From an uncultured Candidatus Melainabacteria bacterium (lineage in GTDB: Bacteria > Cyanobacteriota > Vampirovibrionia > Gastranaerophilales > Gastranaerophilaceae): 64,000 nucleotides of DNA. This document shows, one piece after another, positions 1,807 to 57,251 of this stretch. Both the position numbers and the translations under genes were made by a program. The DNA lies in NCBI GenBank assembly GCA_947090755.1, contig CAMUPF010000008.1:3901-67900 (forward strand), read 5' to 3'. The notes beneath the pieces are model-generated. The model did no database searches. It was not told where the DNA came from and saw only the letters and a list, made by a program, of their open reading frames with translations. The number at the start of each line of letters is the position of its first letter. Position 1 is the stretch's first letter.

Positions 1807-2947
1807 TTAGCGCTTGATACATCTTATAAGAGTTCCGCCGGATGTCCGTTCTTTAAGCATTCTGTCACCAGGCGCAAAGCCTATATAATAAGCTTTGTCC
1901 GCAGAAACGATTGTACTTGACCAGTATGAATTTGTGCCGTCCTCCAGTCCCCATAGTGTTCTGTTGAAAAACATTGAGGATAATTCTTCTATGTTTGGCA
2001 GCCTGCTTTCGCTGTCAAGTTGCTGGCACAATCGACCGGCATTTATTTGATTTCCCGCGGGAGCATTTTGAGGAAGCGGCAATGGCGCTACGACGACGGT
2101 ATCTGTCGGATAAAGCGCTGTAATTGCACCCATATCCTTGCCAAAAGTATTAGGGCCTTTGTTGCCGTTTAAGTCAAAAACAAAGTTTGCACACATCGTA
2201 GGCTGTGTGTATTCTCCGGTATTGGCAAGCCCCTGATTTGAGTTATGAAACCCGCAATTAGGATTATAGTAAACAACAATACTTTCGCCGTTTTGAGTTT
2301 CAAACGCCGCGGCTTTCGTATTTGTCTGGTTATACACGAAACTTGCTCCGTTAACGCTGTTTACGTGAGAACCCGAGAACATTGAATTTAAATCTGCCAG
2401 TGTTTTTGGAAACGATGAAATGGTTTGACCTTTTAGTGTTGTGAAAGTTGAGGTAATTCCGCAATCTGCGAGGTGTTCAGCGTCACATATATTGTTAATT
2501 TTAAGAACTTTTGCTAACCCTTCTGTAACGAAAGTTTCTGCGGCAGTGTCAGTTGTATCGTTTAATGTTCCGTAGCCGTTGAGTGATGGCATTAATGCGA
2601 TGGCCTGAGAGAATCTTGCATAAAGTGCCTTGCGTTGTGTGTTCCATGTGCGTTCGTTAATGTTACCCGTCAAACTAGGCAGCGTAATGGCCGCAACCAC
2701 GCCGATTATGGTTAAGGACAGCAGGATTTCGGCCATGGTAAAGGCCAAGCCGAGCAGAGCCACGGAGCAAGGCTTGCCTTGCGAAGAGACGAGCGTGCGA
2801 CGGTCAAGACCGCGCTCTTGACCGCTAACGCGAGCGGTGGCGTTTAACGCGAGGCGCAGTACCGGCGTTGCGTTAGCGTGCTCGGCTTGCCCCCCCCCCC
2901 CTACTGTACAGGCCCATATTACAAGGGGTTTCAGCTTTTGTGTTCAT
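1807..2947 (-). CDS. type IV pilin-like (prepilin) protein with DUF1566/Lcl-like C-terminal domain, paralog 1; frame broken at homopolymer tract
   Basis: ORF 1807..2763 carries A/FTMAEILLSLTIIGVVAAITLPSL (Phe+1, Glu+5 prepilin motif) and a C-terminal RLPNIEEL..YWSST..IRCIKR. SD GGAGG plus ATG at 2947 is one frame off and stops at 2873-2875. The pilin frame itself is open from 2943 downward. Confidence 0.7.
2764..2889. repeat. GC-rich hairpin-rich 126-nt block inside the leader-coding region of pilin paralog 1
   Basis: Stems gcaaggc/gccttgc (2767-2782), ggtcaaga/tcttgacc (2802-2823) and gctaacgc/gcgttagc (2824-2831 with 2870-2877). GC content is far above the flanks. No counterpart in paralogs 2 and 3. 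Confidence 0.6.
2890..2901. repeat. homopolymeric C12 (G12 on the coding strand) tract
   Basis: Counted directly: c at 2890, ten c at 2891-2900, c at 2901. Confidence 0.95.
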
Positions 2948-2976: not shown

Positions 2977-3005
2977 ATTTTAAACTACGTTTTAGGCGCT
3001 GTCAA
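2977..3005 (-). promoter_or_regulatory. sigma70-like promoter for pilin paralog 1
   Basis: Minus strand reads TTGACA (3005-3000), 17-nt spacer, TAAAAT (2982-2977), about 30 nt upstream of the ATG at 2947. Confidence 0.5.
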
Positions 3006-10503: not shown

Positions 10504-11819
10504 AAGAGGCTGCAAAGGAATATTATTCGGCAGTTTATGGCAAAAAGAGAGAGTTTGACTACATCCCGCCAAGCGGTAAACTTTTAGGCGAAGAAGAGTT
10601 GATGAATATGATTGACGCTTCTTTGGATATGTGGCTTACGGCCGGAAGATTCAATAAAGAGTTTGAAACAAAGTTTGCGAAATATCTTGGTGTAAAATTT
10701 GCGCTTTCAACAAACTCCGGTTCAAGTGCGAATCTTCTTGCTTTTTCCGCACTTACTTCTCACAAACTCGGCGAACGTGCATTGAAGAAAGGCGACGAAG
10801 TTATCTCTGTTGCTGCAGGGTTCCCGACTACAATAAACCCGATTCTTCAACACGGCATGGTTCCGGTTTTCGTTGACTGTGAAGTCGGAACTTACAATAT
10901 CGACGCAGATAAAATTGAAGAGGCTATAACGCCGAAAACAAAAGCGATTTTCCTCGCTCATACGCTTGGAAACAGCTATGATTTAGACAAAATCATGGCG
11001 CTGGCAGAAAAATATAATTTATGGGTTATTGAAGACAGCTGTGACGCTCTGGGCGGTGAATACAAAGGCCGTAAAATCGGTACCATCGGACATATCGGAA
11101 CATTTAGTTTCTATCCTGCACACCACCTGACAATGGGTGAAGGCGGGGCGGTTATTACAAATGACCCTCAATTATACAAAATTATAATGTCATTCCGTGA
11201 TTGGGGCCGTGATTGCTGCTGTCCTCCGGGCCGTGACGGTGTTTGCGGAAAACGTTTCTCACAACAGTTGGGTAACCTTCCTTACGGTTATGACCACAAA
11301 TACACTTATTCTCACATTGGTTTTAACCTTAAAATTACGGATTGGCAAGCGGCTCTTGGCTGTTCACAAATTGATAAACTCGACAGTTTCTTAGAAATTC
11401 GTCGTCGTAACGCAGCACTTTTGACAGAAAAACTGGCGGATTTAAAAGATTACCTGATTCTGCCTGAGGTTAGAGAAGGTGTAAAACCATCTTGGTTCGG
11501 CTATTTGATTTCTGTTAAAGAAAACGCTCCGTTCACAAAACAAGAAATGGTTGAATACATTGAAAAGAAAGGTATCGGAACGCGTCAATTATTTGCGGGC
11601 AATATCCTCAGACAGCCGATGATTGTAGATAATGATGTTAATTTCAGAATTGGAAATTCCGGTTTGATAAATTCAAAAGATTTGACCGAAGAACATTATA
11701 AATTATTACCGAAAACAGATTTTATAATGAATAATACGTTCTGGGTGGGAACATTCCCTGCGCTTGGAGAAGACGAAATTTCAAGAATCTCAGACGCAAT
11801 TCATGCGTGTGTAAAATAA
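10476..11819 (+). CDS. rfbH: CDP-6-deoxy-D-xylo-4-hexulose 3-dehydrase (E1), DegT/RfbH family
   Basis: 447 aa. FRDWGRDCCCPPGRDGVCGKRF..YGYDHKYTYSHIGFNLKITD matches the RfbH-type cysteine-rich region. Sits after rfbF-rfbG. Confidence 0.8.
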   Translation: MEQELRNKVKEAAKEYYSAVYGKKREFDYIPPSGKLLGEEELMNMIDASLDMWLTAGRFNKEFETKFAKYLGVKFALSTNSGSSANLLAFSALTSHKLGERALKKGDEVISVAAGFPTTINPILQHGMVPVFVDCEVGTYNIDADKIEEAITPKTKAIFLAHTLGNSYDLDKIMALAEKYNLWVIEDSCDALGGEYKGRKIGTIGHIGTFSFYPAHHLTMGEGGAVITNDPQLYKIIMSFRDWGRDCCCPPGRDGVCGKRFSQQLGNLPYGYDHKYTYSHIGFNLKITDWQAALGCSQIDKLDSFLEIRRRNAALLTEKLADLKDYLILPEVREGVKPSWFGYLISVKENAPFTKQEMVEYIEKKGIGTRQLFAGNILRQPMIVDNDVNFRIGNSGLINSKDLTEEHYKLLPKTDFIMNNTFWVGTFPALGEDEISRISDAIHACVK

Positions 11820-11839
11820 AAGGCAGGAGCTATAGCCTG

Positions 11840-12979
11840 ATGAGCGTTGCAAAAGGTCAAAATTGCAGTATTAATTTTTTGAGATTTCTTTTTACATTCG
11901 GGATTTGCTTTATGCATCTTGTTTGTCAGGTGATTTCTCCCTATATTGCATATCCGTTGAACTATGGTAATTTTGCGGCACCTTCTTATGCTGTTGAATT
12001 ATTCTTCATAATGGCCGGTTTTTTCTTGTTTTTCAATAAAAAGCCGCTGGAGGAATACATTTCAAACCGTATAATAAGATTGTGGCCGTTGCTGGTGTTT
12101 TCAACTATTATTGCAGGGATTTTGAGAGCTTTGCATATATCAGGTATGTCATTGAAGTTTGATGATATTCTTAACTGCCTGTTTTTACAGGGAACAGGTC
12201 TGATGCAAGGCGGGGCGACTAATGGACCGGCGTGGTTCGTGGGTGTTTTGTTCTGGGTTTCTGTAATATATTATTATTGCAAAAGAGTACTTGGCAAGAA
12301 ATCATTTATTGCATTAATGATTGTTATGGCGGGTATTGGTTTGATAGTATTCGGAACCACAGGCAAGGCAAATCCGTTTGAAGGAGTCAGAGGATTCATT
12401 CTTCCCGCATGGGGGGGGGGGGGGATCTCTATGATGATGTTACGCGGTTTTACGGCTATAGGCATCGGATGTATTCTGGGAAAATTTCAGGAAATTTTTG
12501 CCGGAAGTCATGCTGCGCAGACCCTGCAAAGTGTTTCGGGCTCAAAGAAGCTTTTCACGGCTTTAGAAGTGATATTTTTCGTCGGACTGTGCGCAGTCTT
12601 ACTGGGAGGCAGCCTGATGAATATATATAGTTCTTATTTATTGGCTATGGGCTTATTTTTAATCGTGTTTTTCTTGTTTTTTAATAATTTAGGATATTTT
12701 TCCTCAAAAGTTCTAAACAGAAAAGTGTTTAATCTTCTCGGAGCTTATTCATACGCCATTTATATAATGCAGAATGTAGTATTTTATATTGTAGATTATT
12801 GTTTGAAAACTTACGAAAATCTAATTCCACATACAAATCTGGTTATAACAATTTCGATGATTTTATTTATTGTAATAGGAATTATTTCTTATTATCTGGT
12901 AAATTTCATCGTAGAAAAAACGGTACAGTTATACAATTTTATTCAAAGAGATAATATTTTAAAGGAGACAACTTTATGA
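11840..12979 (+). CDS. membrane acyltransferase family 3 (putative O-acetyltransferase), contains in-frame G14 tract
   Basis: Multi-TM ORF. The N-terminal FLRFLFTFGICFMH motif is typical of acyltransferase_3. ORF open from 11807, ATG 11840 follows AGGAG. The tract encodes WGGGG. Confidence 0.7.
   Translation: MSVAKGQNCSINFLRFLFTFGICFMHLVCQVISPYIAYPLNYGNFAAPSYAVELFFIMAGFFLFFNKKPLEEYISNRIIRLWPLLVFSTIIAGILRALHISGMSLKFDDILNCLFLQGTGLMQGGATNGPAWFVGVLFWVSVIYYYCKRVLGKKSFIALMIVMAGIGLIVFGTTGKANPFEGVRGFILPAWGGGGISMMMLRGFTAIGIGCILGKFQEIFAGSHAAQTLQSVSGSKKLFTALEVIFFVGLCAVLLGGSLMNIYSSYLLAMGLFLIVFFLFFNNLGYFSSKVLNRKVFNLLGAYSYAIYIMQNVVFYIVDYCLKTYENLIPHTNLVITISMILFIVIGIISYYLVNFIVEKTVQLYNFIQRDNILKETTL
12411..12424 (+). 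repeat. homopolymeric G14 tract (in frame, ON)
   Basis: Counted directly: 12411-12420 plus 12421-12424. Confidence 0.95.
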
Positions 12980-17261: not shown

Positions 17262-17971
17262 AAAGCATAATTTATGCAATGGTTCCTGCAAGAGTCGGAA
17301 GCACACGTTTAAAATTAAAGAATATTCGTTTGCTTCACGAGAAACCGTTAATCTGGTATGGGGTAAACGCCGCGCAAACCGCCGGATTTTTCGATAAAGT
17401 TTTTATAAATTCCGATGAAGGTCTGTGGGGTAAACTCGCGCAGGACTACGGGTGTGAATTTTATCATCGTAATAGCGAATTCGCTACCTCTATTTCTACT
17501 GCTGATGATGTTATATATGACTTTTTTAAGAATAATCCCGAATGTGATTTCCTTTTCTGGATAAATACAACAAATCCTTTCCAGCCGTATGAGGATTATG
17601 CAAAAGCATTTGAGTACTTTATTGATAATAATTTAGACGGGTTGATTACGACAACAAAGGATAAAATTCATACAAGGTTTATGGGTAAGCCTCTTAACTA
17701 TAATGCAAATGATAAATTACCTAAAACTCAGGATATTGAACCGGTAGAAGTTTTTGCTTTTCCGTTTAGTATCTGGAGAAGAGAAAGTTTTATAAGAAAT
17801 TATGAAAATCACGGTTATGCTTATCTTTGCGGTAATATAGGCTACTGGGAAGTCAATAAACTTGCAGCAGTTGAAATCGATGATGAGGAAGATTTTCTTT
17901 TCGCTAATGCAATTCTTTATGGACGTGATAATCCTTTGTGTTACAAAAAAGAATATGCAAAATTGGATTAA
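17258..17971 (+). CDS. acylneuraminate/ulosonate cytidylyltransferase family protein (CTP_transf_3)
   Basis: AMVPARVGSTRLKLKNIRLLHEKPLIWY matches the NeuA/KdsB-type N-terminal motif. Confidence 0.75.
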   Translation: MKSIIYAMVPARVGSTRLKLKNIRLLHEKPLIWYGVNAAQTAGFFDKVFINSDEGLWGKLAQDYGCEFYHRNSEFATSISTADDVIYDFFKNNPECDFLFWINTTNPFQPYEDYAKAFEYFIDNNLDGLITTTKDKIHTRFMGKPLNYNANDKLPKTQDIEPVEVFAFPFSIWRRESFIRNYENHGYAYLCGNIGYWEVNKLAAVEIDDEEDFLFANAILYGRDNPLCYKKEYAKLD

Positions 17972-17973
17972 TA

Positions 17974-18695
17974 ATGAAAAGATTTCTAAGAAAAATTTTG
18001 GGTAAAAATAAAACGCAATATTATGACATTTGCGGGGATAATAATAAATTAATTATTATTGAAAATGGTGTTGAGCGTCTGGCGAACAAGGAAACTATTC
18101 TCGGTTTGTGGGTTTCGATACACGGAAATAACAATACCGTAAAGTTAGAACTTCCGATTCATTTTGAAAATTCATCTATTATAATTTCGGATTCTGATGA
18201 GGCTGACATTTTTATCCGCAAGACTCAGCATCACGTTAAAAATTTTTCGGTAAATTCACGCCTGCATAGCGGCCATAAACTATTTATTGATGAAGATTTT
18301 TATTGCAACGGGGCAACAATTTTGCTAAGAGAAGAAAACGCGTCGGTAAAAATAGGTAAAGATTGTATGTTTTCGTGGGGAATAACTATATGGACTTCTG
18401 ACGGACATTGTATTTTTGATAATACAACCGGCGAACTGTTAAATGACCCATCCGGGGGGGGGGGGGCCTCATCGGTAATCATGTATGGGTAGGCTGCAAC
18501 GTTAATTTATTGAAAAATTCGAAAATCCCTGACAATTCGGTCGTTGCGTTAGGGGCAATTATTTCTAAAAGATTTGATGAGGAAAATATTTTGCTCGTTG
18601 GCACAAATGAAGTTAAGAAAAGAAATATTCGATGGACAAGAGATTTTATAACTGATTATAAAAGGAGTAAATGTGAAAGTATTAATAGATTCTGA
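17974..18695 (+). CDS. left-handed beta-helix (hexapeptide) acetyltransferase, split by G13 tract (OFF frame)
   Basis: The upstream ORF ends 26 nt after the tract. The other frame reads LIGNHVWVGCNVNLLKNSKIPDNSVVALGAIISK, a classic hexapeptide transferase C-terminus. 14 or 11 G would fuse the two parts. Confidence 0.75.
18454..18466 (+). repeat. homopolymeric G13 tract
   Basis: Counted directly: 18454-18460 plus 18461-18466. Confidence 0.95.
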
Positions 18696-20197
18696 TTATT
18701 TTTTTATAAGGGATATGTATTATCGTTCCTGCGGCCATACACTTAATACTATTAATATTTTGAAACGTTTTTTCGGCGAAGATTTATTAAAGGATTTCAG
18801 GTGTGTTATTTCTGAAACTGTTTATTACCAGTTAAATGAAGAAGAATTATCCGGTATTAATCCTGTAGTGATTTTTGACAGGGAATTGCGGGATATTTTT
18901 GAGGATAAATTTATATCGCACAATGAAATTGTCGAAAAGTTTTATTACGGCAATTTGACCCCTAACAATCTACAGGATTTGAAGGCGCTTTATTCTCGCA
19001 AACTGGAAGGTTTTGTGCCGGATTTAGTTATGCAATTTGAATATCATAATAAATGTTATGACGATATTTTCCCTAAGGCGTTTAAATTAACCTTTCAGGG
19101 CGGACTTTTTAAAAGGGGAATTGGGCCTGAAACTTATATTATTGACCCCTCAGGCAGCTTTAAGGATTCATCTTTAAATATCTTTCGTGATGAAATTAAC
19201 AATTTCGTAATTTCTGAACAACAAAACACACTGATTGATAACTTTAAACGCCGCCTTAGTAATCTTATAAAAGAGAATACATCTTTTATTTCTACCTTAT
19301 TAGCGCCTTATAAAGAGAAGTTTGATTATCTTGTTTTGCTTCCGTTACAAATGAGTAATCATTATGGTTTTGATACTGAAACAGGATTTAAAACGCAGTA
19401 TGACTATCTTGAATATGTACTGGATAATGTTCCTAAAAATGTCGGGGTAATCGTAACAGAACACGACCATGGCCGTTTTCTTGAAGAAGGAACCTTCGGA
19501 AAAGGCGGATTCTTAGAATGGTTTGAAAACAAGTATGAAAATTTGGTATACATTAAAGAACTGCGGGGGGGGGGGGGGGTATTCCTCTCCGTCAATATAT
19601 TTCTTGCCGGAGGTTGATGCTGTGATAAATGTTTCGTCCTCAGTCGCCCTGACTGCAACTTTATTCGATAAAAGAATAATATCACTTGGTAAAACTTATA
19701 ATAATTGTTTTAAGGATACTCAGGGATTAGAAAACATTATTGAAGTTTTAAGCAAACCGGTTAGAAATAAAAATTCGTTTTTATTCTGGTTTTTGACTAA
19801 ATATGTTTTTTTCGAAAAACAGTTGAATGATAAATCTTTTATGTACCAATATTTATGTGATTCCATAGAAAAATTCAAGAATGAAGGAGTAACTTTTGCT
19901 TACTTTACGCAAATGAATGGAATCGAAGAGGCTTGTGATTCTATTGCAGGGTATATTGAAAATGTTTTCATTACAGAGCGCCGCAGGCAGGAAGATGAAA
20001 GGCTTGCGCAAGAGGCAGAAAGGCTTGCAAGGGAAAAGGAAATAGAAGAAGCAAGACTACGCGAAGAGGAGCGAAAACGGCGGATTGATAAAAAACGTGA
20101 AAGATGTAACCGGTTCGGAATCTATTACGAGGCAAAACATATTATTATCGGCCTGTTCGGGCTTAAAATAAAATTTAGAAACTATTTGGAGGAATAA
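18673..20197 (+). CDS. capsule-synthesis (KpsC/KpsS-like, PF05159-like) protein with C-terminal charged coiled coil, split by G15 tract (OFF frame)
   Basis: YLVLLPLQMSNHYGFD and VIVTEHDHG before the tract. YSSPSIYFLPEVDAVINVSSSVALTATLFDKRIISLGK after it, in the -1 frame. 14 or 17 G would fuse them. Family call by motif resemblance. Confidence 0.55.
19565..19579 (+). repeat. homopolymeric G15 tract
   Basis: Counted directly: 19565-19570 plus 19571-19579. Confidence 0.95.
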
Positions 20198-22988: not shown

Positions 22989-24149
22989 ATGAATAGTCCG
23001 TTAGTATCACTATTTATACCGTATTATAATGATAAAACTTTTTTAAGGGTTTCTATAGAGTCTGTATTGTCACAAACTTATAAAAACTGGGAGTTGATTT
23101 TGGTAAACCATGCATCAACTGATTCAAGTCGTGAGATAGCTCATTCATATAATGACAGTAGAATTAAACATGTTGACGTTAGCTGTAATTTAGGGGTTGG
23201 CGGTGGCGGGCTGCTAATGACAAAATTTCTGGAACAGGCTAAGGGCAAATATGTTAAATTTTTATGCGCTGATGATATGTTGCTTGATGATGGATTATCA
23301 ATTCTCGTTGATTATATGGAAAGTCATCCTGATATAGATTTTGCATTTGGCAATTTGAATTATATTAATGAAAACGGCAGGTCTCTGGGGAAAGATTTTT
23401 TCTCGAATAGAGAATATTTTTCTGTTGATAATACTGAAGCTGACTGTATACGTCTTTATTCTAAAGGATATAGTTTTTTACCGTATATTGGCAGTATTGC
23501 GAAACGCCAAATTTTCAATAATATAACAATAAACAAAACGATTATTATGACATTTGATATGTCTTTATGGCTTTCGCTGCTGTGTAAGGGATATAAAATC
23601 GGTTATATTGAACAACTTATCGGAAATTATAGAATTCATAAAGAACAGGCCTCTGCAATACAAAAAAGAAGACAGGCTGAAATGTTAAGTTCGCATGAAT
23701 GGGGAATATTTTGGAAGATTTTTCTTACTATTGAAAGCGTAGATTTGGCAAAAGAGGTATGGCCCGAGAGCGATTTAGCAGAGAAACTTACCCGTAAAGA
23801 AGATATCCCTTTTTTTGTAGCATATATGCTATTTGATTTCTGGATAATTTCGCAGGAAATATATGCTTATATCGCCTCCTTACTTGATGACGATTGCAAG
23901 CGTCAATACTTAATCGAAACATTCGGTTTTGGTGTCAGAGAGTTGAGGAAAGCCTGTCTGAATAAGTTACAAACTAATAATTCAGCGAAAATGAATTCCT
24001 TGAAAAAATATAAAACTAAACTTTATATGAAAGGCGTTAAGGATTTAAATTTACTGGATATGATTTATCTTGCGTTTAGAAAATTTATCAACTTAATTAC
24101 TTTGCGCCCTTTATTTAAACTGTTCAAAAAGAAAAACTATTCGTTATAG
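22989..24149 (+). CDS. family 2 glycosyltransferase (paralog B)
   Basis: VSLFIPYYNDKTFLRVSIESVLSQTYKNWELILVNHASTDSSREI. ATG 22989 after AAAGGA; the tracked ORF starts at TTG 22983. Confidence 0.8.
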   Translation: MNSPLVSLFIPYYNDKTFLRVSIESVLSQTYKNWELILVNHASTDSSREIAHSYNDSRIKHVDVSCNLGVGGGGLLMTKFLEQAKGKYVKFLCADDMLLDDGLSILVDYMESHPDIDFAFGNLNYINENGRSLGKDFFSNREYFSVDNTEADCIRLYSKGYSFLPYIGSIAKRQIFNNITINKTIIMTFDMSLWLSLLCKGYKIGYIEQLIGNYRIHKEQASAIQKRRQAEMLSSHEWGIFWKIFLTIESVDLAKEVWPESDLAEKLTRKEDIPFFVAYMLFDFWIISQEIYAYIASLLDDDCKRQYLIETFGFGVRELRKACLNKLQTNNSAKMNSLKKYKTKLYMKGVKDLNLLDMIYLAFRKFINLITLRPLFKLFKKKNYSL

Positions 24150-24686
24150 AATAAAGTTCATATAGCTTTCGTCGATTTTATCCTGTTCTATTCCGATGTA
24201 TCTTAGAGTTATTGAGGTTGAGGAATGGTTCAGGATTTTTTGTAGAAGCGCGATATCGTTAAACCGGATATAATGGTGATAACCAAACGTTTTTCTTAGC
24301 GAATGGGTACCAACTTTATATTTTATTCCCACTGTTGTGCAAGCCTTATTAATAATCCTGTATGCCTGATGCCTGTCGAGCCGGTTGTTATAAACCGTAG
24401 TAAACAGCGGCTCTTTGTCTTTTTTGCCTTCGATATGACGAATTATTAGTTGTTGTAATTTTTGATTTATCGGGAATCTTTTGTGTTTATGAGTTTTCTT
24501 TTCTGTTATACAAATATGGGTTTTGCCGCGAACATCCCCGACGTTGAGGCCCAGAATATCGGATATTCTGAGTCCGCTGTTTGTTCCCATAACGAAAAAC
24601 AGTAAATCTCTTAAACTTTGCTTTTCAAGAGTGTGTTCAATGCGTTTCAAATCATCTTTGTTTCTAATCGGTTCTACAATGTTCAT
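24144..24686 (-). CDS. small tyrosine recombinase (catalytic domain only, 180 aa)
   Basis: GLRISD (Arg), HSLRKT (His-x-x-Arg), NHSS and LRYIG (Tyr) catalytic residues. No N-terminal SAM-like or arm-binding domain. Confidence 0.8.
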   Translation of the reverse strand: MNIVEPIRNKDDLKRIEHTLEKQSLRDLLFFVMGTNSGLRISDILGLNVGDVRGKTHICITEKKTHKHKRFPINQKLQQLIIRHIEGKKDKEPLFTTVYNNRLDRHQAYRIINKACTTVGIKYKVGTHSLRKTFGYHHYIRFNDIALLQKILNHSSTSITLRYIGIEQDKIDESYMNFIL

Positions 24687-24888: not shown

Positions 24889-24891
24889 ATT

Positions 24892-24974
24892 TGGGCAGGG
24901 GTGGATTCGAACCACCGTAGGCTCGCACCGACAGATTTACAGTCTGTTCCCTTTAGCCACTCGGGCACCTACCC
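24892..24974 (-). tRNA. tRNA-Tyr (anticodon GTA), class II long variable arm
   Basis: Manual cloverleaf: acceptor GGGTAGG/CCTGCCC, anticodon arm ACAGA-CTGTAAA-TCTGT, T arm GGTGG-TTCGAAT-CCACC. CCA not encoded. Confidence 0.85.
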
Positions 24975-25172
24975 ATATTAAATTTTAGTTTCTTTCCTGC
25001 TCTCTAATGTGTTCCGCCAGTGTCCGTAACCTGCCTAGTGCTCTTTTTCGGCTAATTACTTGTTTTATTTCCTGATGCTATTCATATTCCTTATGGTTGC
25101 GGACCGGCCACACACATTTTTGAGTTTTTATATCAGATTGGTATCTCTGATTAAGTTCGAGATAACGCAATA

Positions 25173-25244
25173 TGCCCTTGACGAGATTTGAACTCGTGGC
25201 CTCTCCCTTACCAAGGGAGTGCGCTACCCCTGCGCCACAAGGGC
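25173..25244 (-). tRNA. tRNA-Thr (anticodon GGT)
   Basis: Acceptor GCCCTTG/CAAGGGC, D arm GCGC-AGGGGTA-GCGC, anticodon arm CTCCC-TTGGTAA-GGGAG, T arm ACGAG-TTCAAAT-CTCGT. Confidence 0.85.
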
Positions 25245-25419
25245 TTGCCTTCTGGTTTGCCGCACTTTGTAATTCTGAAGGGAACCAAGGGAGTGCTGCT
25301 ACCCTCCTCCACTCAAACGATATTCTAATCGTTTTCGCGGAGTCCTTGCCACAAGGGCTCTTTTGGACGCCTCTAGCGTTACGAGCCAACCCGTAAACCC
25401 TTTCCGGCACCCGAGAAAT

Positions 25420-25491
25420 AGCCGGCAATAGGAATCGAACCTACAACCTACGGTTTACAAAACCGTTGCTCTACCGTTGAGCTATGCCGGC
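25420..25491 (-). tRNA. tRNA-Thr (anticodon TGT)
   Basis: Acceptor GCCGGCA/TGCCGGC, anticodon arm ACGGT-TTTGTAA-ACCGT, T arm GTAGG-TTCGATT-CCTAT. Confidence 0.85.
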
Positions 25492-29296: not shown

Positions 29297-29325
29297 TTGA
29301 CTAAAGTGAAAAAATAATACATAAT
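29297..29325 (+). promoter_or_regulatory. sigma70-like promoter of pilin paralog 2 (conserved with copy at 63933)
   Basis: TTGACT 29297-29302, 17-nt spacer, CATAAT 29320-29325. The same architecture and downstream leader recur at 63933..64000. Confidence 0.6.
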
Positions 29326-29396
29326 AATTAATAAAGAAAGGCAGGCTGATCCTGTTCTACAATCGAACCCGAGTGAAACTTGGGAGAAAGGAAATT

Positions 29397-30415
29397 ATGA
29401 AAAACAATATTGTAAACATTTTGACAGGGGGGGGGGGCCTCTCTTAACAGGCTTCACTATGGCGGAGATACTTCTGTCATTAACAATAATCGGTGTGGTT
29501 GCGGCGATAACGCTTCCGTCGCTGACAGGCAACATTAACGAACGCACATGGAACACCCAGAGAAAAGCACTTTATGCCCGTATGAGTCAGGCGATTGCCC
29601 TAATGCCGGCGTTGAACGGTTACGGAACTTTGACAGAGGGCAACGAATCAACGTCAGCCGTCGACACCGCTGCCGAAACTTTCGTCACGGAAGGCCTTTC
29701 AAAAGTTCTCAAAATTAATAATATTTGTGACTCCGACCACCTCGCGGATTGCGGTATACCTACCCAATTTAATAATATCGGTGGAGATGTTGTATCTACC
29801 TGGCCTCAAACTTTTGTTGCTTTGAACGGGATGTTTAACGGTTCCTATGAAAACTATGATGGTTCAAGTGTAAATGTTATTTGGACTTATTCACAAACAG
29901 ATACGAAAGTCGCGGCATTTGAAACCGCAAATGGAGAAAGCGTTGCTGCGTATTATAATCCTTATTGTGTAGGTAATTTTAATGAAACAAATGAATATTA
30001 TATTCAACCTAAAGTTTGTGCAAATTTTATATATGACTTGAATGGATCTAAAGGACCTAATACTGTTGGGAAGGACATTGGGTTTATGACGGTATTTTAT
30101 CCTACTGATTCAGTTGTAGTTGCGCCTCATCCTTCGGTTAGACTTGCGACAAACCAGCGGGTTGTGCAGGCTGAGGCAGGGGCGGCCTGTTTCGCGCTGG
30201 ATAATGAAACAAGAGTTCCCAATATTCATGAGATTGCGTCTATGTTTACGAATAGGCTGTTAATGAAATCTACAATCACTGAAACAGGAACTAATGGGAT
30301 TTGGTCGGGTTCAAAATATTCTGCGTCTTATGACTGGTTATTCAACTGGGCTTGTGGAAAATGTATGTTGAAAGACCATGCTTGGACAGGAAATGTTTGG
30401 TGTATAAATCGTTAA
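29397..30415 (+). CDS. type IV pilin-like (prepilin) protein with DUF1566/Lcl-like C-terminal domain, paralog 2; leader interrupted by G11 tract (OFF frame)
   Basis: RBS GGGAGAAAGGA, ATG 29397, MKNNIVNILT, then G11, then TAA at 29445. With 12 G the frame reads GGGGPLLTG/FTMAEILLSLTIIGVVAAITLPSL and joins ORF 29459..30415. C-terminal RVPNIHEI..IWSGS..VWCINR. Confidence 0.8.
29427..29437 (+). repeat. homopolymeric G11 tract
   Basis: Counted directly: 29427-29430 plus 29431-29437. Confidence 0.95.
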
Positions 30416-40430: not shown

Positions 40431-41408
40431 ATGAAAAGATTTTTTACGGTGAAATCTGCCGCTTTTACTATGGCCGAAATTCTGTTGTCTTTGACAATCA
40501 TCGGTGTTGTTGCGGCGATTACGTTACCGTCTTTGACCGGTAACATTAACGAACGAACATGGGCGACTCAAAAGAAAGCGCTTTATGCACGTATGTCACA
40601 GGCAATTCCGTTGCTTGATTCTATGAATACTTATGATGACGCCGAGTCTTTCATAGCAGGCGCATTGAATAAAGTTACTAAAATCAATAACGTTTGCGCG
40701 CAAGACCATTTGGAAGATTGCGGTATTAACAAAGATTTGTTAGGAAGACTTGCTGACGGTACGACAACTTCTTTCCCTGAAACCTGGTCTGCTTTAGGTA
40801 TTGATAAGCAATTCTCTTATGCTTCAGCAGCGGATGATACGGCAGAAGCAACTTCAAACAAAAAATTGAGTGCTAATCAGGCAATGGTTGCAGCATTTGA
40901 AACCGGAAACGGTGAATCAATTGTTCTTTATTACAACCCTGATTGTACTGCCGATCAGGAACAGGCGCCAAATGCCATTGTCGACGGTTCCGGTACAAAC
41001 TACATAGACATGTTTGATCACGTATGTATCAATATGATTTATGACTTGAATTCAAACAAAGGACCAAACGCAGTTGGTAAAGATATTGGATTTATGACTG
41101 TATTCTATCCTTCAGACGCAACGGTTGTTTCTCCGGTTCCTTACGTTCAGTCATCAAGCTCTGCGACTTGTGACAGCGAATACAGATTGCCTAACAGATT
41201 CGAAGCTGCGGCATTCGCTCTTAACTCTACTTTAATCAGCGCTACGGCAGAAGGCCCGTATTTAACATCAACTAAGGCGTCAACCGGTAATGATACTTAT
41301 GTTTATATTCAAGATAAAAATTCAAGCGGTGAAATCAAAGCTTATACTAAAAAGATAACCGACGGCGCCTCTGCAGGTGTTTCATTCTCCAGATGCGTAA
41401 AACGTTAG
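40431..41408 (+). CDS. type IV pilin-like (prepilin) protein with DUF1566/Lcl-like C-terminal domain, paralog 3 (no homopolymer tract)
   Basis: MKRFFTVKSAA/FTMAEILLSLTIIGVVAAITLPSLTGNINERTW. C-terminal YRLPNRFEAAAF..SRCVKR. Confidence 0.8.
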   Translation: MKRFFTVKSAAFTMAEILLSLTIIGVVAAITLPSLTGNINERTWATQKKALYARMSQAIPLLDSMNTYDDAESFIAGALNKVTKINNVCAQDHLEDCGINKDLLGRLADGTTTSFPETWSALGIDKQFSYASAADDTAEATSNKKLSANQAMVAAFETGNGESIVLYYNPDCTADQEQAPNAIVDGSGTNYIDMFDHVCINMIYDLNSNKGPNAVGKDIGFMTVFYPSDATVVSPVPYVQSSSSATCDSEYRLPNRFEAAAFALNSTLISATAEGPYLTSTKASTGNDTYVYIQDKNSSGEIKAYTKKITDGASAGVSFSRCVKR

Positions 41409-55590: not shown

Positions 55591-55776
55591 ATGGCACCGG
55601 ATTTGAAAAAGATTGAACAGATGGCAGAAAAAATTCTTAAGATTATTATCGTTATGCGATATTATTGCAAGCAAAGCGAAGACGAGTATGAAATGGGGAA
55701 TGTCATACCGCTTATTGATATTTTATGGAAAGAATCTGACAATTTGGTTTGTGAAATTTGCGGGTTTAATGATTAA
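55591..55776 (+). CDS. hypothetical small protein
   Basis: AAAGGAG RBS, ATG 55591, 61 aa. Divergent from the XRE gene, with TTGACA-17-TATAAT in the spacer. Confidence 0.5.
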   Translation: MAPDLKKIEQMAEKILKIIIVMRYYCKQSEDEYEMGNVIPLIDILWKESDNLVCEICGFND

Positions 55777-57251
55777 AGTTCTTCGTAAATTTCAATCGGG
55801 GCGTAGAAGGAAACTTCTTCGCGCGCAAGAACACTGACTTCATTGAAATAGCTTGATAGCATTTTGAATATCAGGTGGCGGAATTCAAGCGGAACAATTA
55901 TTGTACGGCAATTGTATTTCGTCATTAGTTTTTCAAGCTTTTTAGCCAGTTGATCAGCGTATTTTGCGTCGATTTTGATGATTTCTTCGTCTTCCTCTTC
56001 TTCAACGGCTGTTTCGCAGACGTTTAGGAGCGAATCTTCTGTGATTTCGATTGCAGGGATTACGCCGTCTTCGTTTACAAAATTCCTTGTAATCTGGCGG
56101 CCGATTGAAAGACGCAGTTTGCGCAAAATGTCTGATTTGTCGCAATCGTTCGCAAAATCATTAATTTTTTCTAAAATAAATGTGATGTCTTTTATTGAAA
56201 CTCTTTCATTGATGAGGCTTGTCAGAATGTATCTTAAATCTGCAAGGGTTAAAAATTCAGGGATTAGGTTTTCGATTAAGTAGGAGTTGTTTTCATCAAC
56301 GACTTCGATGTAGTTGTCAAGTTCGTTGTAGTCTAAGATTTCGTCAACAAATTTTACAGCGATAAATTCCAGCGCGCGGGTTATGCATTGAGCGCCGGAA
56401 AGTCCTTTTTCCCAGAAGTCTTTGCATTTTGTTTTTGGAACCCATACGATTTTTTTGCCTGAAATGGCGTCATCGTCATAGATTGCGTCTTTAATTTTTT
56501 TGTCGGTAAGGATATTGTCAGCGAAAAACATCAGATGATTAGGGTAGACGATTCCTCTAAAGACTTCCAGCCCGCGGATTTTTATGGTGTATTCGTAAGG
56601 GCTCAGGGTTTCGTCGTCCTTAAAAACGATTTTAGGGATTACGTAACCCAGTTCTTCGGTGAGTTTAAGGCGAAGTTTGACGGTTTCTGCGATAAGTTCT
56701 TCTTCGTCGATATCCTGTTCTGCGTCGATGTAGCCGAGGATTTCTTCGCTTAAAGTTATGGCAAGCTTGTCTTCGTGAAGTTTTTTGTACATACCTTCGG
56801 GCGAAGTGGTTTCCGCAAGCTGGCGCTTGAGTTCTTCAAGTTCGCGCAAACCCGTTGATATTCTGTCGTTAAGGCGTTTGCGGCCAAGTGAGGCAGGCGC
56901 TTCGTTTTCGAGTTCTTTTTTTGCGCGTGCAACTTTGTTTTTAACTTCTTTGATTTTGTGTTGGATTTCAAGGCACGCTTCATAGGGTGTAAGTGTAGGG
57001 GATAGAAGTTTTTCCATCTGGCTTTTGAAGTTAGAGATGTTTATTTCGTCCGTGTTTCGGGTGTAATTTTCGTCTTCGGATTCTTTCATAAAAATGCAGT
57101 TGTACTGATAGCCTTCATCCATTTCGACTTCGTTGATGGTGTAGAGTTCCCAGCCGTTCATAGACATTTCGTTCAACAGGTTTTGAAGAGCCTGTGTGTC
57201 TTCGCTTGAACAGGTTTTGATAACATATTGCATTTTCTTGTTTTTAAACAT
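55773..57251 (-). CDS. soluble protein with DUF4177-like N-terminus, coiled coil and FlhA C-terminal (FHIPEP cytoplasmic) domain; no transmembrane region
   Basis: LTEELGYVIPKIVFKDDETLSPYEYTIKIRGLEVFRGIVYP and LTSLINERVSIKDITFILEKINDFA closely parallel conserved FlhA-C blocks. The N-terminus NGWELYTINE.. is DUF4177-like. Confidence 0.65.
   Translation of the reverse strand: MFKNKKMQYVIKTCSSEDTQALQNLLNEMSMNGWELYTINEVEMDEGYQYNCIFMKESEDENYTRNTDEINISNFKSQMEKLLSPTLTPYEACLEIQHKIKEVKNKVARAKKELENEAPASLGRKRLNDRISTGLRELEELKRQLAETTSPEGMYKKLHEDKLAITLSEEILGYIDAEQDIDEEELIAETVKLRLKLTEELGYVIPKIVFKDDETLSPYEYTIKIRGLEVFRGIVYPNHLMFFADNILTDKKIKDAIYDDDAISGKKIVWVPKTKCKDFWEKGLSGAQCITRALEFIAVKFVDEILDYNELDNYIEVVDENNSYLIENLIPEFLTLADLRYILTSLINERVSIKDITFILEKINDFANDCDKSDILRKLRLSIGRQITRNFVNEDGVIPAIEITEDSLLNVCETAVEEEEDEEIIKIDAKYADQLAKKLEKLMTKYNCRTIIVPLEFRHLIFKMLSSYFNEVSVLAREEVSFYAPIEIYEEL

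Follow-up and report, generated by a model that had tools for sequence, protein, structure and literature searches.

A poly-G tract in the leader of a pilin-like gene family of gut Gastranaerophilales as a candidate translational switch

A poly-G tract interrupts the leader of a pilin-like gene

We analyzed a 64,000-nt stretch of DNA, here called the window (contig CAMUPF010000008.1 of assembly GCA_947090755.1, positions 3,901 to 67,900), whose source is a gut metagenome-assembled genome (MAG) of the Gastranaerophilales (Melainabacteria), with a GC content of 39%. The gene under study, here called the target gene, encodes a pilin-like protein, and a run of 11 G residues lies within the segment encoding its leader peptide. 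A sigma-70-like promoter, a Shine-Dalgarno (SD) sequence and an ATG stand upstream of the run (Table 1). As assembled, the frame reads GGGGLS after MKNNIVNILT and stops at the TAA at 29445, whereas 12 or 9 G would join MKNNIVNILTGGGG-PLLTG/FTMAEILL (the slash marks the predicted cleavage site) to the open reading frame (ORF) at 29459-30415. Repair of the frame by gain of one G or loss of two yields MKNNIVNILTGGG(G)PLLTG/FTMAEILLSLTIIGVVAAITLPSL..., continuous with the 318-codon ORF, and a protein of 339 aa. The leader of the target gene, MKNNIVNILTGGGGPLLTG, has 19 aa and a single Lys, and the cleavage motif in the repaired frame, PLLTG/FTMAE, has Gly at -1, Phe at +1 and Glu at +5. A preliminary description of this DNA, made from the letters alone, had listed the SD and ATG, exactly 11 G after MKNNIVNILT, the early stop, the fusion to the 318-aa ORF at 12 or 9 G and the three prepilin residues; every detail of this poly-G observation was confirmed.

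The length of the G11 tract is far beyond chance. Five G or C runs of at least 11 are present in the window (C12 at 2890, G14 at 12411, G13 at 18454, G15 at 19565 and G11 at 29427), against an expectation from window base composition of 0.002 for G and 0.0003 for C (total, 0.0025). The longest run of A or T is only 8, though both bases are much commoner.

The encoded protein resembles a type IV prepilin with a lectin-like end

The repaired protein scores 16.7 bits against the NCBIfam model TIGR02532 (IV_pilin_GFxxxE), above its cut-off of 16.3, and 13.5 against Pfam N_methyl, below the cut-off of 21.2. The cleavage site is followed by a hydrophobic N-terminal helix sequence, FTMAEILLSLTIIGVVAAITLPSL. 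An AlphaFold (AF2) model with a mean predicted local distance difference test (pLDDT) score of 77 consists of an N-terminal helix, a beta-rich middle domain and a C-terminal Lcl_C or C-type-lectin-like domain; helices are placed at residues 22-39 and 47-68, and pLDDT is low over residues 1-45. The best Foldseek match of the C-terminal domain is 8q4e, the C-terminal domain of Legionella Lcl (E value, 1.5e-4; template modeling [TM] score, 0.62; root mean square deviation, 2.0 A), and C-type lectin-like folds come next. Pfam Lcl_C (DUF1566, PF07603) matches the C terminus weakly (16 bits; cut-off, 34.9), while several homologues carry a precomputed PF07603 match. Given the model fold and these matches, the protein is best described as a pilin-like adhesin. 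With about 320 aa and such an end, the protein is more like a minor or tip pilin, or an adhesin, than like a major subunit. The lectin-like domain is joined here to a prepilin N terminus and a beta-rich domain, unlike in Legionella Lcl, where its counterpart accompanies a collagen-like repeat. No homology to the beta-propeller proteins PilC/PilY1 was found in Pfam, NCBIfam or Foldseek.

The tract is a conserved and translated feature of a large gene family

Database searches with the repaired protein returned 2387 homologues. Most of the 120 best protein matches start with MKxxxVxxxxGGGG, followed by a variable linker and then [GA]FTMAEILL. Mature residues 1 to about 50 (FTMAEILLSLTIIGVVAAITLPSLTGNINERTWNTQRKALYAR) are nearly invariant among paralogues, and the remainder is 45-70% identical. 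When the family alignment was compared with one genome per species, only gut MAGs of Gastranaerophilales/Melainabacteria were matched; the copies number at least 450 and come from a handful of Gastranaerophilales species. At least 16 copies among the best matches come from a single complete 2.02-Mb HiFi MAG (OZ007029.1). Many family copies (L009, L020, L026, L034, L036, L046, L059, L071, L073 and L074) also lie in an entry named 'MAG: Fusobacterium sp. isolate NALB_7963_5' (JAMPIJ01), which is probably mislabelled taxonomically.

The following counts are over copies that share ancestry as paralogues and orthologues and are thus not fully independent. A G tract of at least 7 stands upstream of Phe+1 in 61 of the 82 copies examined, with lengths of 7-16 and modes at 12-13 (11 G in 9 copies, 12 in 18, 13 in 22, 14 in 4, 15 in 2 and 16 in 1); copies lacking a tract are mostly at contig ends. 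Of 68 family loci, 48 have a TTGAC[AT]-N17-ACATAAT box at a distance of 80-270 nt on the 5' side of the tract, a GAAAGGA-type SD is conserved across loci 7-9 nt 5' of the ATG, and the leader start MK(K/N)xxV is conserved in homologues. Since the promoter box and the SD-ATG both precede the tract, the tract is part of the message and of the ORF and acts on translation, not on promoter spacing. A role as promoter spacer was rejected for the same reason: the -35/-10 box is 80-270 nt away, with the SD-ATG between box and tract.

The segment between tract and Phe+1 provides a further constraint. These linkers range from 10 to more than 550 nt and often contain GC-rich palindromic modules; PLLTG/SRLTA-type linkers such as that of the target gene recur in many homologues. 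Among 39 linkers of at least 90 nt, 34 are free of stop codons in the pilin frame, compared to 0 and 1 in the other two registers, and linker lengths of orthologues differ by multiples of 3 (18, 93 and 105). This restriction of open linkers to the pilin frame strongly indicates that translation continues through tract and linker into the pilin.

These data bear on the idea that the target gene is a decaying pseudogene, or a silent cassette serving as recombination donor like Neisseria pilS. A majority of family copies are indeed out of frame, and the roughly 50 near-identical mature residues, together with the finding of one body behind different leaders, suggest gene conversion or recombination. 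Such an origin is nevertheless very improbable for the target gene. Its mature ORF runs undamaged through 320 codons and can be aligned with the family over the full length, its own promoter, SD and ATG are kept, and the tract is the sole lesion; decay or donor status also sits poorly with linkers that are open only in the pilin frame.

Several further observations concern the leaders. An identical mature pilin body occurs behind different linkers and leaders. Many linkers contain GC-rich palindromic elements resembling miniature inverted-repeat transposable elements (MITEs) or repetitive extragenic palindromes (REPs), for example, at positions 1745-1950 of L080; they are in frame, stop-free and located between tract and cleavage site, and they yield leaders of up to about 150 residues. 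These palindromic inserts recall the Rickettsia palindromic elements found inside genes. In a Gastranaerophilus MAG (JAZUCM01; L003, L042, L053, L056 and L069), the start before the G11 tract (MNYTKYN...SSI) lacks an SD and directly adjoins the -10 box. The linker contains a second start, an SD-ATG, located about 90 nt past the tract (MNMIKKAG/FTMAEILL in the related protein P0005). By this arrangement, the pilin in that species may be translatable independently of the tract. Just 5' of the target SD, the sequence CTGATCCTGTTCTACAATCGAACCCGAG (29345-29380) translates in the pilin frame to ADPVLQSNPSE, similar to an 'AEPVLQLNPS' module within linkers of other family members; it looks like the remnant of a linker element that is now outside the ORF.

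Orthologous loci differ by single G residues

Tract lengths were compared at loci with shared neighbors. At the fbaA/pilin/alaS locus, two ENA assemblies with flanks 99.5% identical have G13 (L080) and G12 (L081), and G12 places the SD-ATG in frame. At the locus between a rarA-like gene and a gene for a 234-aa protein, 17 contigs include the tract, with coverage of 7-18x where contig names state it: G13 is present in 12 contigs and G12 in 4 of those read. Three of the G12 sequences are in frame (three places shown, which stand for five contigs), the fourth has a linker 14 nt longer, and one contig is garbled (L163). Neither G11 nor G14 was seen among the 17 contigs of this locus. Within single protein clusters at 90% identity, products starting MK...GGGG and MQGGGG (one G more) both recur across assemblies, in 10 versus 56, 6 versus 17 and 9 versus 24 contigs. 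In-frame alleles account for 14-35% of contigs at single loci, across independent assemblies.

Assemblies and annotation both fail systematically at genes of this family. Among the family loci of the koala MAG Zag_221 (MOYE01), there are seven two-base N gaps, every one of them inside a tract (L008, L010, L019, L022, L041, L055 and L072). In L020, 100 N stand in place of the tract region, and the conserved 5' end of family genes is exactly where many metagenome contigs break off. Genes of the family are also systematically misannotated, with starts placed at an internal Met or at 'MQGGGG'.

Reading phases among family members are strongly biased

We called the reading phase of 65 family loci (L001 to L161 and the window) with the SD-ATG as start, where ON+1 denotes one G too many (pilin in the +1 frame) and ON-1 denotes one G too few (+2 frame). 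The 65 copies divide into 19 in frame, 42 ON+1 and only 4 ON-1, a nonrandom distribution (chi-square P = 4.5e-8; binomial P = 5e-9 for the 42:4 split). The bias recurs in the HiFi genome, in several Illumina MAGs and in independent metagenome contigs (6 in frame, 8 ON+1 and 0 ON-1). Tract length follows the start offset plus linker length in such a way that ON+1 is kept: context 0 goes with 13 G, context 1 with 12 and context 2 with 11 or 14. The bias and this covariation of length with context indicate that some further constraint is at work. The target gene, whose G11 tract would need 12 G to be in frame, belongs to the few ON-1 copies.

Could the length differences be sequencing artifacts? 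If the assembly had miscounted a true G12, the target gene would be intact, and some or all of the length differences would be homopolymer errors. The rarity of ON-1 (4 of 65 copies) makes an undercount of G12 a real possibility, and assemblies do struggle at tracts, as seen from the seven koala gaps, the garbled L163 and the contig breaks at 5' ends. Random one-G errors, however, should fall evenly on both sides, whereas the observed states are strongly asymmetric and alike in HiFi and Illumina assemblies; furthermore, both G12 and G13 were found repeatedly at a single locus in many independent samples, with coverage of 7-18x where stated. We therefore consider this explanation unlikely. An error at G11 would in any case change the statement of the preliminary description that the gene is currently OFF and not the nature of the element. 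That statement holds for G11 as assembled and depends on one assembled consensus in the rare ON-1 state, for which an undercount of G12 is possible.

Another alternative is fixed recoding, in which ON+1 is the normal, designed state, the pilin is made by +1 ribosomal frameshifting or RNA polymerase slippage, and in-frame copies are undercounts. The 42 of 65 copies in ON+1 and the covariation of length with context look like selection on phase, as this idea would have it. Low-level ribosomal frameshifting is also reportedly the subject of work by Belland in 1989 which, as far as its title goes, concerns out-of-frame gonococcal P.II genes in Escherichia coli. In-frame alleles at 14-35% of contigs at single loci are nevertheless too many for consensus errors, and the target gene would need a -1 shift, not +1. 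In Neisseria, Campylobacter and Helicobacter, comparable tracts of 9-15 G switch phenotypes cleanly ON and OFF, strong rescue by slippage not being the norm. The 93 nt downstream of the target tract fold no better than shuffled sequences (z = -1.3). We consider fixed recoding quite unlikely. A programmed -1 frameshift site was also considered for the target gene and rejected; a G GGG GGG heptamer is present, but the downstream RNA has no significant structure, and an Rfam scan at the tract gave no match.

Four other explanations of the bias were set aside. One is the promoter role of the tract discussed above. A length-dependent mutational equilibrium alone does not fit, as tracts that are in frame have between 9 and 15 G and ON+1 is the prevalent OFF state in every case. 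Dual coding of a conserved alternative peptide in the out-of-frame reading does not fit either, as orthologues differ at sites that are synonymous in the pilin frame. Early termination with reinitiation at Met+3, which would make ON-1 rare, is not general, since a stop codon follows the tract at short distance in either OFF register (medians, 17 and 25 nt). Besides recoding, one reading remains: switching could be real and ON-1 rare because it is never optimal, for example, if ON-1 is leaky while ON+1 is tight.

A potential second start near the tract is common in the family. About half of class 1 leaders read ...(A/G)TGCA-Gn, which places an ATG or GTG 5 nt before the tract, in frame in ON+1 (L002, L018, L024, L030, L033, L050, L077, L080 and others). 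This start has no SD, and gene callers report its products as 'MQGGGG...' proteins. Because it lies in the +1 frame, such leaders have an in-frame start in two of the three tract phases. The target gene has no ATG at this position, reading TTGACA-G11.

A proposed slipped-strand switch in the leader

We consider it likely, from the sequence comparisons above, that the target gene encodes a type-IV-prepilin-like surface protein with a lectin-like end which is phase-varied by a slipped-strand translational switch in the cleaved leader, and that it is one of dozens of such paralogues. Transcription would start from the strong promoter of the gene itself, and translation would start at the SD-ATG at 29397 and proceed through the G tract as the Gly run of the leader. 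Slipped-strand mispairing at replication would alter the tract by one G and shift the pilin body in or out of frame. With G11, the ribosome would halt after 16 codons, leaving the gene off or at most leaky, and G12 would turn it on. As the tract is upstream of the Gly-1/Phe+1 cleavage site, the mature protein is the same at any in-frame length, provided that prepilin peptidase cleaves there as predicted. With dozens of paralogues, each having its own promoter and tract and few of them in frame, a cell could display a combinatorial and reversible repertoire of adhesins, presumably in filaments or on the surface, under selection that may come from host immunity or phage. The contingency-switch reading of the preliminary description is supported in this way at the level of the family, by conservation of the tract, the linker frame and one-G differences between orthologues, while the target locus itself yielded no second allele.

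Several observations weigh against this model. Ala replaces Gly at -1 in many family members, and leaders extend to about 150 residues, both of which are atypical for prepilins. No pilus-machinery or prepilin peptidase (PilD) gene is found among the about 60 window ORFs scanned; in favor of the model, a Gastranaerophilus genome is reported to contain pilA, pilB, pilC, pilT and pilD (PMC5877343). Sequencing readily goes wrong in homopolymers of 11-13 G, so that part of the polymorphism may be technical. A simple symmetric slippage switch would also not predict the observed phase distribution. An exact DNA search of metagenome contigs for the target leader plus tract gave 0 matches, and two candidate orthologous tracts, L056 (sharing groES upstream) and L086 (sharing a downstream gene for a 209-aa protein), were rejected as their leaders differ. 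An exact look-up of the 318-aa target product in the contig index likewise gave no record.

The phase bias might be accommodated by extending the slipped-strand switch to a three-position device within a very large repertoire for evasion of immunity or phage, a doubtful but not unreasonable possibility. Here, the in-frame state would be fully ON, ON+1 a tight OFF and ON-1, to which the target gene belongs, a leaky intermediate that is at no time the fittest, hence its near absence (4 of 65 copies). The leakiness of ON-1 could arise from -1 ribosomal slippage on G GGG GGG or from addition of one G by RNA polymerase. If this were true, gut Melainabacteria would run tens of independently switched lectin-pilins as ON/ON+1 toggles, and MITE-like palindromes would be tolerated in a disposable leader, where they may tune slippage or recombination.

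The Gastranaerophilales are widespread, uncultured and nonphotosynthetic relatives of Cyanobacteria in human and animal guts, and their dealings with the host are almost unstudied. Should the proposed switch hold, a 2-Mb genome would give dozens of loci to individually switchable lectin-like pilins, in addition to switched glycan-modifying genes, implying strong and fluctuating surface selection from immunoglobulin A (IgA), phage or variable host glycans. Metagenome sequences reveal tract phases directly, which would provide a marker of within-host adaptation, and the OFF-phase bias could point to recoding or leakiness of a kind that matters for contingency loci in general.

Comparison with known contingency systems

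Phase variation of pilC1 and pilC2 in Neisseria gonorrhoeae and Neisseria meningitidis was reportedly described by Jonsson et al. in 1991. In pilC, which encodes a pilus-associated protein, frameshifts in a homopolymeric G tract of the leader-coding region switch expression and leave the mature protein unaltered (PMC5354566; PMC5953494); the same is proposed here for the target gene. PilC, unlike the protein described here, is a Sec-exported tip adhesin of the PilY1 family rather than a pilin and is encoded in one or two copies. In the present family, it is the pilin-like protein itself that has the tract in its class III (prepilin) leader; the paralogues number dozens, belong to a Cyanobacteria-related lineage and have no sequence homology to PilC. 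The pilC tract is in the signal-peptide region (PMC5354566) and ranges from 9 to 20 G (PMC5354566; PMC5953494).

Similarity to the Neisseria opa (P.II) multigene family is found in the many paralogues, each with its own 5' repeat tract, and in the independent switching with few of many expressed. Low-level frameshifting of out-of-frame opa copies is reportedly described in the 1989 work of Belland. The CTCTT repeats of opa are in the signal-peptide-coding part, and each opa gene has its own promoter. The repeat unit of opa is a pentamer, unlike the target tract, and Opa proteins are beta-barrel outer-membrane adhesins. We know of no description of a strong bias between the two OFF phases of opa. 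In the literature, the repeats are placed near the 5' end of the gene (PMC5354566), and up to 12 opa paralogues are counted in gonococci (PMC5953494). A repeat in a cleaved leader is therefore known from both pilC and opa, meaning that what the preliminary description called a neat design already exists; new here are the lineage, the scale, the location in a prepilin leader and the phase bias.

Campylobacter jejuni and Helicobacter pylori are moderately AT-rich and have many intragenic G or C tracts of 8-15, concentrated in surface-glycan genes. The window is comparable in having three G tracts in a glycan locus. To our knowledge, tracts in pilin leaders have not been reported for these two species, nor has a large pilin family. 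In the lic1 and lic2 loci of Haemophilus influenzae, ATGs in two frames upstream of the repeat lead to strong, weak or no expression; the -5 ATG or GTG in about half of class 1 leaders, in frame at ON+1, is a similar potential second start, one that the target gene lacks. We found no literature linking Gastranaerophilales or Melainabacteria to phase variation or homopolymeric tracts.

Other features of the window

The window holds three copies of the family: the target gene, paralogue A and paralogue C (Table 1). The insert in the leader of paralogue A is bounded by perfect 11-nt terminal inverted repeats, CAAGCCGAGCA, with a fold z score of -2.85. Paralogue C has its own promoter-like box and sits downstream of two tRNA-Arg genes.

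TABLE 1 Coordinates of the target gene, its paralogues and other long G tracts in the window
Feature	Position	Strand	Description
Sigma-70-like promoter TTGACT-N17-CATAAT	29297..29325	+	10/12 consensus matches
Shine-Dalgarno region GGGAGAAAGGA	29382..29392	+	Read in sequence
ATG (29397-29399) and first 10 leader codons, MKNNIVNILT	29397..29426	+	Read in sequence
Poly-G, 11 G, codons 11-14, coding for Gly run of leader	29427..29437	+	In frame at 12 or 9 G
Linker PLLTG in pilin frame, ending in Gly-1 of prepilin cleavage site	29438..29452	+	PLLTG/SRLTA-type linker
TAA closing the 16-codon out-of-frame product MKNNIVNILTGGGGLS	29445..29447	+	Frame translation
Mature pilin-like protein, Phe+1 to stop	29453..30415	+	Listed ORF begins at internal Met 29459
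Paralogue A	1807..2947	-	ATG 2947, leader MNTKAETPCNMGLYSR, Phe+1 codon 2742, stop 1807
Paralogue A tract, poly-G12 (C12 on + strand)	2890-2901		Out of frame, common ON+1 state; in frame at 11 or 14
Paralogue A insert	2746-2889	-	144-nt palindromic, in frame
Paralogue A promoter-like box TTGACA-N17-TTTAAAAT	2977..3005	-	
Paralogue C	40431..41408	+	No poly-G; short classical leader MKRFFTVKSAA/FTMAEILL
Glycan-locus tract G14	12411-12424		In frame inside Acyl_transf_3 ORF 11807-12979
Glycan-locus tract G13	18454-18466		Splits hexapeptide-acetyltransferase-like ORF (17938-18492 plus downstream frame); needs 14 or 11 G
Glycan-locus tract G15	19565-19579		Separates ORFs 18673-19617 and 19523-20197; fusion at 14 or 17 G

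The groES-groEL genes lie just upstream of the target gene on the opposite strand, and the window also encodes flagellar export genes, pentapeptide-repeat and two-component genes and a 16-kb glycan-biosynthesis locus. The glycan locus spans about 7.7-24 kb. The four other long G/C tracts of the window, three of them in this locus, indicate that the organism uses such tracts widely. By analogy, the tracts of the glycan locus look like phase-variable glycan modification of the Campylobacter type.

Among the flagellar genes, an FHIPEP (FlhA-like) ORF at 55773-57251 on the minus strand has 492 aa and matches only positions 310-653 of the 657-position model. The N-terminal membrane part expected of such a protein is absent from the adjacent sequence, where a uridine-kinase-like gene lies on the other strand. 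At the end of the glycan locus, a short ORF of the phage integrase family (180 aa; 24144-24686, minus strand) adjoins a tRNA-Tyr/Thr/Thr cluster at 24891-25491, and this pair is perhaps the boundary of an island that recombines or was acquired horizontally.

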